Source of the DNA: a virus
Virus record (IMG/VR): IMGVR_UViG_3300045988_017397
Length of the DNA stretch: 5,480 nucleotides
Reading direction: 5' to 3' (one strand)
Position 1 is the first letter of the stretch; every line of letters starts with the position of its first letter. A program made the translations under genes and the position numbers. The notes under the pieces are model-generated. The model saw nothing but the letters and a program-made list of their open reading frames with translations, was not told the origin of the DNA and did not search any database. Positions 1,641 to 5,480 of this stretch are shown here, in pieces.

Positions 1641-1668
1641 TAGCCGTAGTAGTAGGGGCTGTGGAAAA
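1641..1668 (+). promoter_or_regulatory. Candidate DnaA-trio / GC-cluster / DnaA-box element (basal-unwinding-system-like)
   Basis: The sequence reads TAG CCG TAG TAG TAG (1641-1655), GGGC (1656-1659), TGTGGAAAA (1660-1668). The 9-mer is the reverse complement of TTTTCCACA, which fits TTWTNCACA at 9/9 and TTATCCACA at 8/9. An AT-rich tract (1611-1640) lies on the trio side. Confidence 0.5.
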
Positions 1669-1764
1669 GTTGAAAACCATAAATTTGAAACATAACATCG
1701 TAAAAAATAAGCATATTTCATTGTTGAAAGATTTGTTGAAAACTTGTTGAAATGTTGAAACACT

Positions 1765-1793
1765 TTACCAGACTAAAATCTATTGCGTATAAT
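1765..1793 (+). promoter_or_regulatory. Weak candidate promoter between the two repeat clusters
   Basis: TTACCA (1765-1770, 4/6 to TTGACA), a 17-nt spacer, then a perfect TATAAT (1788-1793). No gene follows within about 230 nt, so the function is uncertain. Confidence 0.25.
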
Positions 1794-1832
1794 GATGTTG
1801 AAAAGTATGTTGAAAATGTTGAAAACCATAAG

Positions 1833-1841
1833 TTTTCCACA
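1833..1841 (+). promoter_or_regulatory. Second DnaA-box match, inverted relative to 1660-1668
   Basis: TTTTCCACA matches TTWTNCACA at 9/9. It is the exact reverse complement of TGTGGAAAA at 1660-1668 and sits 1 nt after the second GTTGAAAACCATAA copy. Confidence 0.5.
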
Positions 1842-1893
1842 AACTGTTGAAAATCGGAATTAAAGGCCGCACGGCAGACAGCCGGAAAGTCAC

Positions 1894-5152: not shown

Positions 5153-5480
5153 ATGGCAATACCAGCCTTATTAGGAGCCTTATCAACAGGCGCAAAAGTA
5201 CTGGGTGGCGTAAGCAGCCTTATAAGCGCAGGAACCGGCATCTTTAACGCACTCAAAGGCACATCGGGTAGCGGAGCAACAAGCTCGAGCGGATACCAAA
5301 CGAGTCAAGGGGCAAGCGGTTCGACCATGACCGGAGAAAGCGGAGTAAACATGGACCAGACAAAAGAGCTGGCAAAATACTTTCTGGGGCAGAGCCAACA
5401 AGCGCAGGGCATGCAGAGCTTGCAAAACAACAAAAACTCTCTCTTGGCACTGGGCTTAAACACTCTGGGAGCTATCCAGC
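5153..5480 (+). CDS. VP2: VP2 / DNA pilot protein, N-terminal part (continues through the circular junction into 56..543)
   Basis: The ATG is at 5153-5155. Hand translation gives MAIPALLGALSTGAKVLGGVSSLISAGTGIFNALKGTSGSGATSSS...[22 protein letters not shown] with no stop before the window end. The N-terminus is hydrophobic and Gly-rich, as expected for a pilot protein. The frame is continuous with 1..543. Confidence 0.85.
   Translation, partial: MAIPALLGALSTGAKVLGGVSSLISAGTGIFNALKGTSGSGATSSSGYQTSQGASGSTMTGESGVNMDQTKELAKYFLGQSQQAQGMQSLQNNKNSLLALGLNTLGAIQ
5426..5480. repeat. Terminal direct repeat, copy 2 (circular-genome overlap)
   Basis: Identical to 1-55. Confidence 0.97.

Follow-up and report, generated by a model that had tools for sequence, protein, structure and literature searches.

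Microviruses are textbook examples of phages that replicate with a nuclease of their own and the elongation factors of the host, independently of the host initiator. In bacteria, the basal unwinding system (BUS) consists of tandem co-oriented DnaA boxes, a GC-rich tract of 4–5 base pairs (bp), at least three DnaA-trios, and AT-rich DNA. The DnaA-trio is 3′-[G/A]A[T/A]-5′, i.e., 5′-TAG-3′ (PMC7561715), and at its middle position strand separation is supported by two bases, A and C (PMC10721633). The GC-rich tract, 4–5 bp long, lies directly between the proximal box and the trios (PMC8235120). The rows of BUS scaffolds used in experiments, in the supplement of PMC8287927, give strand and orientation explicitly. 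The Synechococcus elongatus scaffold TAGATCAGTAGTAGTAGGGGCTGTGGAAAATGTGGAAAA is composed of TAGATCAGTAGTAGTAG-GGGC-TGTGGAAAA-TGTGGAAAA, and the Staphylococcus aureus scaffold TAGTAATAGTAGTAGGTGCTGTGGATTGGTGGATAAGT of TAGTAATAGTAGTAG-GTGC-TGTGGATT-GGTGGATAA; the Bacillus subtilis and Clostridium rows agree, the Clostridium boxes being of the TGTTGATAA type (PMC8287927). Here, we analyzed a viral DNA of 5,480 nucleotides (nt), IMG/VR record IMGVR_UViG_3300045988_017397, referred to below at its full length as the window. It represents a circular gokushovirus genome of 5425 nt, and its bases 1–55 recur at 5426–5480. The element at 1609–1853 is probably a phage-borne, host-matched copy of the DnaA-dependent opening machinery of the bacterial chromosomal origin (oriC), made up of a BUS and about 10 DnaA boxes.

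The order of parts at 1609–1676 is an AT-rich stretch, AACTTGTTG, TAG CCG TAG TAG TAG, GGGC, TGTGGAAAA, and GTTGAAAA. The complete module is composed as follows; conservation refers to an alignment of 49 modules from related phages.

1609–1631, + strand: AT-rich stretch, candidate DNA-unwinding element distal to the trios (1611–1631 has 14% GC)
1632–1640, + strand: AACTTGTTG, near-invariant phage-specific 9-mer (entropy 0.10 bits)
1641–1655, + strand: TAG CCG TAG TAG TAG, DnaA-trio-like block, from the alignment
1656–1659, + strand: GGGC, 4-nt GC-cluster spacer from the trios to the proximal box, from the alignment
1660–1668, + strand: TGTGGAAAA, proximal DnaA box, a perfect match to TTWTNCACA
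1668–1676, + strand: AGTTGAAAA, second co-oriented box and first GTTGAAA copy, 8 nt start-to-start from the proximal box
1677–1721, + strand: A/T-rich variable spacer of about 45 nt, from the alignment (inter-box entropy 0.98 bits)
1722–1761, + strand: box cluster 2, with TGTTGAAAG, TGTTGAAAA, TGTTGAAAT, and TGTTGAAAC at 1722, 1734, 1745, and 1753
1762–1795, + strand: variable central spacer, promoter-like (TTTACC-18-TATAAT) in this sublineage only
1796–1825, + strand: box cluster 3, three TGTTGAAAA boxes at 1796, 1808, and 1817
1834–1842, − strand: inverted perfect DnaA box (TTTTCCACA on the + strand), part of inverted repeats I13 and I7
1845–1853, + strand: last TGTTGAAAA box, sublineage-specific (in 6 of the 49 modules)

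The published BUS search program looks for at least three consecutive trios, a box with no more than 2 mismatches at a distance of 0–16 bp, and a second co-oriented box with no more than 4 mismatches; the proximal box has to read TGTGGATAA on the trio strand, 3′ of the trios. Every sequence element sought by the program is present in the window. Consecutive trios occupy 1641–1655, and TGTGGAAAA begins 4 nt past the last of them, with 0 mismatches to TTWTNCACA and 1 to TTATCCACA, in the same orientation as in the S. aureus, S. elongatus, and B. subtilis scaffolds. The second box, at 1668–1676, forms with the proximal one the tandem pair of the unwinding unit, and its 8-nt phase is the same as in the B. 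subtilis, S. aureus, and Clostridium acetobutylicum rows (PMC8287927). The GC cluster is GGGC, and the AT-rich region lies at 1611–1631. The junction in the window can be written as TAGCCGTAGTAGTAG-GGGC-TGTGGAAA-AGTTGAAAA, preceded by AT-rich DNA of 14% GC. A permissive Rfam scan of the whole window gave no match, nor did a distant blastn search of 1600–1870 against a plasmid collection.

The comparison with the bacterial oriC BUS (B. subtilis incC; Richardson 2016/2019, Pelliciari 2021) showed the same arrangement, 5′-AT-rich-(TAG)n-4 nt-box-box-3′ on the trio strand, and the same 8-nt distance within the box pair. The phage core is near-identical to the S. elongatus scaffold and to the origin of Ruminococcus (locus L175), and the GGGC spacer is identical in both. 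The phage unit differs in its setting, since it lies on a 5.4-kb rolling-circle single-stranded DNA phage beside the gene of an HUH-type initiator, VP4, and not beside dnaA/dnaN. An additional element, the invariant AACTTGTTG, separates its trios from the AT-rich DNA, the GC cluster is often not GC-rich in the relatives, and the unit is known from sequence alone. Its position on the gokushovirus genome, between VP4 and a block of small open reading frames (ORFs), makes it an oriC-like element and not an oriC.

An earlier note, made from the letters of the window, had drawn attention to nine exact GTTGAAA copies, all on the + strand, and had estimated fewer than 0.05 by chance. We found the copies at 1669, 1723, 1735, 1746, 1754, 1797, 1809, 1818, and 1846, and the expectation from the base composition of the region itself is 0.03. 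The GC content of 1611–1860, given in the note as 29%, was recomputed as 28.8%. Outside 1669–1852 the word does not occur in the window, for which 0.86 copies would be expected, and 0 of 200 shuffles reached nine. The note was also right that five copies belong to the 9-mer TGTTGAAAA (1734, 1796, 1808, 1817, and 1845), that a perfect box, TGTGGAAAA, adjoins them at 1660–1668, and that the copies within the two clusters are spaced by 12/11/8 and 12/9 nt. The reverse complement of TGTGGAAAA, TTTTCCACA, was found at 1834–1842. The degenerate word TGTKGAWA is present 10 times in 1660–1852 (nine on the + strand, one on the − strand), i.e., as a cluster of mostly co-oriented host-type boxes, compared to 0.73 expected in the whole window; it occurs once elsewhere, at 5181–5188 on the − strand. 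The feature is larger than described in the note. It starts at about 1609 and includes the AT-rich stretch, AACTTGTTG, the TAG block at 1641–1655, and the GGGC spacer. With this part present, what had been an array of boxes becomes a complete origin-unwinding unit. A TATAAT between the clusters (1788–1793) is present as reported; it is not a conserved part of the module and is confined to this sublineage. A promoter reading of this TATAAT (score 10/12) was rejected as a core part of the module, because the central spacer contains palindromes in other lineages (GCACAAA..TTTGTGC or CGTCA..TGACG).

About 45 deposited gokushovirus records showed 70–78% DNA identity to the window at about 1620–1826 alone, with little other DNA matching. 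When IMG/VR was scanned for three closely spaced GTTGAAA copies, at least 119 loci were recovered, 50 of which were microviruses with 3–10 copies, nearly all on one strand. Their VP4 proteins were 31–98% identical and their VP1 proteins 44–88% identical to those of the window, and module DNA was 65–78% identical between genomes whose VP1 was only 44–50% identical. The alignment revealed a fixed plan: an AT-rich run, AACTTGTTG, TAG-NNG-TAG-TAG-TAG, a 4-nt spacer, and two abutting boxes, followed by a variable spacer of about 45 nt, four boxes, a variable centre of about 35 nt, and three or four boxes. The first stretch is AT-rich in all 49 modules and variable in sequence (entropy 1.04 bits). 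TAG-NNG-TAG-TAG-TAG or a near variant was present in 49 of 49, at least three consecutive TAG triplets were kept in every one, and the middle base of the variable triplet was A or C only. The length of the spacer between trios and box is fixed at 4 nt in lineage A and is 3 nt in most modules of lineage B, in which the module is inverted (see below); its sequence is free (1.49 bits).

The boxes themselves were conserved in a characteristic way. The proximal site (1660) was TGTGGAAAA in 17 modules, TGTTGAAAT in 11, AGTGGAAAA in 8, and other words in the rest. At site 1796, we found TGTTGAAAA in 27 modules and TGTGGAAAA in 21, and at site 1734 TGTTGAAAA in 32, TGTGGATAA in nine, and TGTGGAAAA in five. 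The consensus over nine sites in 49 genomes was T-G-T-(T 85%/G 15%)-G-A-A-A-N, with position 4 never C, and the entropy of the box core positions was 0.07–0.38 bits compared to 0.98 bits between boxes. These data strongly support the identification of the GTTGAAA repeats as DnaA boxes. The inverted box at 1834–1842 was confined to this sublineage and lineage B; at host origins, too, inverted boxes are scattered among the others. Two modules differed in length, one by a 55-nt duplication of the stretch that extends from the box pair into the first spacer (L086) and the other by an insertion of about 40 nt with extra boxes (L018), which indicates that box number changes by local duplication.

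A motif search across Microviridae relatives and candidate host origins found the word in both. When 185,579 species genomes were scanned for three close copies of TGTTGAAA, about 55 of the 120 matches listed came from Oscillospiraceae, Ruminococcus, Ruminococcaceae, and other Clostridia. In three of these genomes, the arrays lie between Pfam-confirmed dnaA and dnaN genes, with 16–18 boxes on the trio strand. TGTTGAAA was the top 8-mer in three dnaA-dnaN spacers of Oscillospirales (13–18 copies), and two of the three host origins examined contained no box within one mismatch of TGTGGATAA. The host junctions read (TAG)5-GGGC-TGTGGAAA in L175, (TAG)5-GGGGG-TGTTGAAA in L200, and TAG TAG TCG TAG TAG-GGGG-TGTTGAAA in L213; the TCG triplet of the last is also seen in phages. 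An AT-rich run occupies the position that matches phage 1609–1631, and AACTTGTTG was not found in the corresponding position of the host junctions. The earlier note had likened the array to that of oriC, and this likeness appears well founded, given that perfect boxes and TGTTGAAAA replace each other at homologous sites and that the same word is used in the dnaA-dnaN origins of Oscillospirales. Its view of the repeats as low-affinity variants is probably wrong. The GTTGAAA type is the predominant box at the origins of the likely hosts and is probably their native box rather than a weak variant.

The origins of Ruminococcus and Oscillospiraceae (L175, L200, L140, L131, L166) resemble the phage module in the dominance of TGTTGAAA with TGTGGAAA as a minor form, in mostly co-oriented and occasionally inverted boxes, in box spacings of 8–12 nt, and in the (TAG)5-GGGC/GGGG junction. 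They differ in size, having 500–830 nt and 16–18 trio-strand boxes compared to about 245 nt and about 10 boxes in the phage. The blastn comparison with the hosts gave box-level similarity and a 37-nt core match only. As no extended homology to the sampled host origins was found, recent capture of one of them was ruled out, and the likeness is one of grammar.

The DnaA proteins encoded beside TGTTGAAA-rich origins contained GGRDHSTIVY(A/S) in five of five cases (L200 4815–4955, L175 from 4855, L140 from 1508, L131 from 6352, and L166 from 4414). Thus, the recognition helix reads DHSTIVY in Ruminococcus/Oscillospiraceae, compared to DHTTVIHA in B. subtilis and DHTTV(I/L)HA in B. subtilis and Escherichia coli taken together. 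In the structure of E. coli DnaA bound to DNA, the differing positions presumably include residues that contact bases, and a shifted box preference would be in line with this. The changed helix may explain the shift from TGTGGATAA to TGTTGAAAA in this order.

We also looked for canonical-box versions of the unit. The scan for TAGTAGTAG-N3-5-TGTGGATAA gave 28 viral loci, none of them a microvirus. Several IMG/VR contigs of 23–161 kb that are not microviruses (L315/L324/L335, L323, L339, L328, L333, L338) carry (TAG)n-GGGC/GGGG-TGTGGATAA-TGTGGATAA followed by arrays of canonical boxes, and no DnaA protein motif was found in the examined stretch of these contigs. They are either phage or phage-plasmid origins that copy the host unwinding unit or host DNA in prophage calls. 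A 13-kb record named 'Bacteriophage sp.' (MT836079.1, L343) has (TAG)5-GGGC-TGTGAATAAGTTGAAAACC and then box-like sites at 450–940, and its neighbouring sequence reads, reversed, as a DnaA C-terminus (..GDRDHTTVSHG..). This record resembles the dnaA side of a bacterial origin region more than a phage.

To obtain a sample independent of the motif, control loci were picked by VP1 homology. Among loci with VP1 at least 81% identical to that of the window, 34 of 36 had the array, and 30 also passed a strict BUS pattern; among those with 52–57% identity, the array was present in one of 44. The module-less relatives in the latter sample lacked a trio block and a AACTTGTTG context and had no 7-mer repeated to a comparable degree, by which other box flavours in these genomes were ruled out. 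It follows from the sequences compared that the module is gained or lost as one unit among gokushovirus clades. Two apparent array-less relatives, MG945199 and MG945144, were discarded, as they are linear partial records that end at the module. One genome deposited as complete (KT264799.1, 5179 nt; L240, 755–815) contains only the AT-rich stretch, CTTGTTG, (TAG)5, GGAG, TGTTGAAAT, and GTTGAAT. Unrelated sequence follows directly after the two boxes, and the distal box clusters are missing. Judged by its sequence, KT264799 is a natural minimal BUS.

The module always abuts VP4. It lies downstream of this gene in lineage A and directly upstream, in inverted orientation, in lineage B. In the eight lineage-B genomes (L114, 2676–2885; L019, L008, L044, L078, L088, L057, and L049), the module is inverted with respect to all genes and lies between VP2 and VP4, with the AT-rich end again facing VP4, which is about 35% identical to that of the window. 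Should the rolling-circle nick site fall within the module, the packaged strand of these phages would be the complement of the mRNA-sense strand. No phage gene family was found in all module-bearing genomes and in no module-less genome. The families that seemed to track the module were rejected, being an M15 peptidase, a small ORF with a coiled coil, and spurious ORFs that overlie conserved DNA. The peptidase-M15-like ORF (about 130 amino acids; 3859–4248 in L003, and homologues) was found in 28 of 50 module-bearing and 0 of 44 module-less genomes; the window lacks it.

The architecture and its orientation, its conservation, the interchange of TGTTGA-type and perfect boxes, and a grammar identical to that of host origins suggest how DnaA binding, melting, and use of the opening would proceed. 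On the double-stranded replicative form, host DnaA would bind the co-oriented TGT(T/G)GAAA boxes. DnaA-ATP would then oligomerise from the tandem pair at 1660–1676 over GGGC onto the TAG trios of the + strand (1641–1655), and this would melt the AACTTGTTG/AT-rich segment at 1609–1640, beside the VP4 gene. The opened duplex could then serve replication, by host helicase loading (theta-type and host-controlled), by supplying single-stranded DNA for VP4 nicking, or by both.

Several points weigh against this proposal. The rolling-circle microviruses studied so far, exemplified by phiX174, are not known to need DnaA. Sister clades live without the module, so it is not essential to the replication of the family. 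The spacer is not GC-rich in many relatives and is often half G+C (AGTA, GCAA, GGAG), and the TAG block together with AACTTGTTG could be a VP4 recognition sequence that merely resembles trios. The whole case is a comparative one, and the first 50 relatives were chosen by the motif itself, which is mitigated by the VP1-based sample. Among the matches listed from the bacterial genome scan there was no microvirus copy. Finally, Ruminococcus/Oscillospiraceae are named as likely hosts by box flavour alone; we found no host prediction for this gokushovirus clade in the literature.

The best surviving alternative, though an unlikely one, is a DnaA sink or regulator without unwinding. The boxes would titrate or sense host DnaA on the multicopy replicative form and thereby prevent host initiation or change its programme, or make phage promoters respond to DnaA-ATP levels, like datA or DnaA-regulated promoters, and the TAG block would have some other role. 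The count of about 10 boxes per genome would suit such a function, as would the location of the array, which in lineage A precedes a perfect promoter at 1975–2003 and in lineage B lies immediately upstream of VP4. DnaA-box clusters are also conserved in T5-like phages, where they are not considered to be origins. A sink, however, leaves the invariant trios, the fixed 4-nt spacer, the strand and orientation, and the AT-rich flank unexplained. It would moreover be expected to keep boxes rather than trios, whereas the reduced variant KT264799 keeps the BUS core and has dropped the distal boxes.

It is very unlikely that the repeats are iterons, bound by VP4 or a small phage protein as by the Rep of theta plasmids or of circular Rep-encoding single-stranded (CRESS) DNA viruses, and defining the phage origin. 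The earlier note had offered this reading, which the direct repeats next to an initiator gene and the neighbouring phage-specific, invariant AACTTGTTG would fit. Iterons should co-vary with their own initiator, but one repeat word is shared by genomes whose VP4 identities range over 31–98%, and it stays constant where VP4 drops to 31–48% identity. No other gene family is common to all module-bearing genomes and missing from the module-less ones, and the small ORFs gave no DNA-binding domain hit. The same word, spacing, and trio junction are found at bacterial dnaA-dnaN origins, where there are no phage genes.

A role in single-stranded DNA is also scarcely probable. Modelled on the DnaA 'A-site' hairpin, it assumes that a hairpin at 1817–1841 presents a duplex DnaA box and recruits DnaA, which assembles a primosome for complementary-strand synthesis; a variant of this idea leaves the curvature of phased A-tracts as the only function. 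The box at 1834–1842 can indeed pair with 1817–1826 to give a 10-bp hairpin with one mismatch (I13), which occurs in lineage B too, and A-tracts recur every 8–12 nt. Most module-bearing lineages lack the hairpin, however, and the other nine or so boxes are direct repeats that cannot become duplex in single-stranded DNA. The inversion in lineage B argues against a strand-specific need, except if the packaged strand is inverted as well, and curvature does not explain a sequence-specific variation between G and T only.

The least probable reading is an operator for another host factor, such as Spo0A in a phi29-like use of sporulation or an OmpR/WalR-type regulator, whose direct-repeat sites lie about 11 nt apart. 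The 11–12-nt spacings and the single base between the 0A box TGTCGAA and TGTTGAA could be cited in its favour. Even though Spo0A boxes overlap DnaA boxes at B. subtilis oriC (PMC7561715), the operator array raised in the earlier note is disfavoured and the Spo0A idea was rejected, as TGTCGAA was absent from all 51 phage modules and from three host origins, position 4 of the box is either T or G and never C, the sites swap with perfect DnaA boxes, and spacings of 8–9 nt are as common as those of 11–12 nt.

Other replicons offer partial parallels to a DnaA-dependent unwinding unit. P1 oriR, pSC101, R6K, and F have host DnaA boxes by their own initiator gene and an AT-rich region, and DnaA assists opening. 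They differ in having a theta-type Rep with iterons of its own and one to few DnaA boxes, whereas the initiator of the phage is a rolling-circle nuclease and its sole repeats are DnaA boxes. To our knowledge, no DnaA-trio unit has been described for these plasmids. The origin of phiX174, which we take to be the 30-nt gpA recognition sequence CAACTTG^ATATTAATAAC..., lies in or next to the initiator gene and has AACTTG with an adjacent AT-rich run, like the phage module. AACTTG (1632–1637), presumably common to AACTTGTTG and the origin core CAACTTG, was the only similarity in the comparison with the phiX174-type gpA origin. The phiX174 origin differs in having no known DnaA boxes and no known DnaA dependence, and the order of AACTTG and the AT-rich run is reversed. 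The injection-stop region of T5-like phages contains conserved, precisely arranged non-coding DnaA boxes, including the TTATCAACA type; these are paired in inverted repeats, no trios or unwinding unit are described, and the authors argue that the region is not an origin (bioRxiv 10.1101/866236). DnaA boxes in phages and plasmids are therefore already known, T5 being an example. Our literature search found no paper that combines Microviridae or gokushoviruses with DnaA, and, as far as we know, a BUS has not been described for any single-stranded DNA phage with rolling-circle replication.

All genes of the window are on the + strand, and VP2 spans the circle junction. The nearest deposited genome is Gokushovirus WZ-2015a (KT264798, human faeces, 92% identity). 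The non-coding region at 1563–2028 comprises 466 nt and is followed by the small ORFs (no family match), an ORF5-like gene, a Chlamydia-phage-type scaffold gene, and VP1. In the profile search, the small ORFs of the window gave no Pfam hit and no DNA-binding domain. The elements that flank the module are as follows.

540–1562, + strand: VP4, rolling-circle replication initiator gene (Pfam REP_ORF2-G2P, E = 1.6e-14)
1570–1608, + strand: perfect 15-bp hairpin with a T-rich run (inverted repeat I2, 100% complementary, 9-nt loop)
1894–1933, + strand: GC-rich hairpin element, GTCATGC ... GGCGC-acc-GCGCC ... GCATGAC, directly 3′ of the array and highly conserved

The VP4 translation contains the HUH motif HHHAIYY and the tyrosine pair YVAGY. 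The hairpin at 1570–1608 serves as terminator of VP4 and bounds the module on the left; other lineages have different GC-rich hairpins in its place. A GC-rich hairpin bordering AT-rich DNA appears to be a constant feature of the genomes compared. Long alternating CG/CA hairpins (e.g., cgcgcacacacatacgcgcg...cgcgcacgtgtgcgcacg) were observed directly 5′ of the AT-rich run in L009, L021, L087, and others.

The 40-nt element at 1894–1933 reads GTCATGCTCTTCG(C/T)ACGGCGCACCGCGCCTA(C/G/A)CGCATGAC, with an outer stem of 7 bp around the inner hairpin GGCGC-acc-GCGCC. It is near-identical across 40 loci, including lineages with about 49% VP1 identity, and at one locus the stem reads GTTGTGC/GCACAAC, i.e., it contains two compensatory pairs. 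The single-strand fold of the GC-rich stretch at 1855–1945 had an energy no better than that of shuffles (z = −0.82). GC-rich hairpins of different sequence occupy this position in other lineages. The element may be a nick-site hairpin or a complementary-strand origin, and it and AACTTGTTGTAG are the stretches that may hold the VP4 nick site. AACTTGTTG is invariant in module-bearing phages and absent from module-less relatives, which also have VP4; it is a candidate VP4 recognition or nick site. Further downstream, a sigma-70-type promoter at 1975–2003 has a perfect TTGACA-17-TATAAT, a TG before the −10 hexamer, and an A/T tract upstream. It precedes the small-ORF block and strong Shine-Dalgarno sequences, and it was the source of short matches to Pseudomonas phage promoters in the DNA similarity search.

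A conserved, complete DnaA unwinding unit would mean that some microviruses recruit the host initiation machinery. Tentatively, a widespread gokushovirus clade of the mammalian gut may have acquired a complete host-matched oriC-opening module, so that its replicative form is fired by host DnaA. If so, such a phage would in effect be an oriC minichromosome grafted onto a rolling-circle single-stranded DNA phage. This could allow the phage to persist as an episome coupled to the cell cycle, in an integrase-free carrier or pseudolysogenic state, or let DnaA help to expose the VP4 nick site, and the inversion of the module in one lineage would predict a packaged strand that is flipped relative to the genes. 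At 245 nt, and with minimal and inverted forms that occur in nature, the module offers a compact system in which to study box-spacer-trio cooperation. It reveals what would be an undescribed shift of DnaA-box preference in a major order of gut bacteria, together with a changed DnaA recognition helix, and the TGTTGAAA box flavour gives a cultivation-free clue to the hosts of gut viruses whose hosts are largely unknown. The finding also bears on how abundant gut microviruses may persist without integrases.

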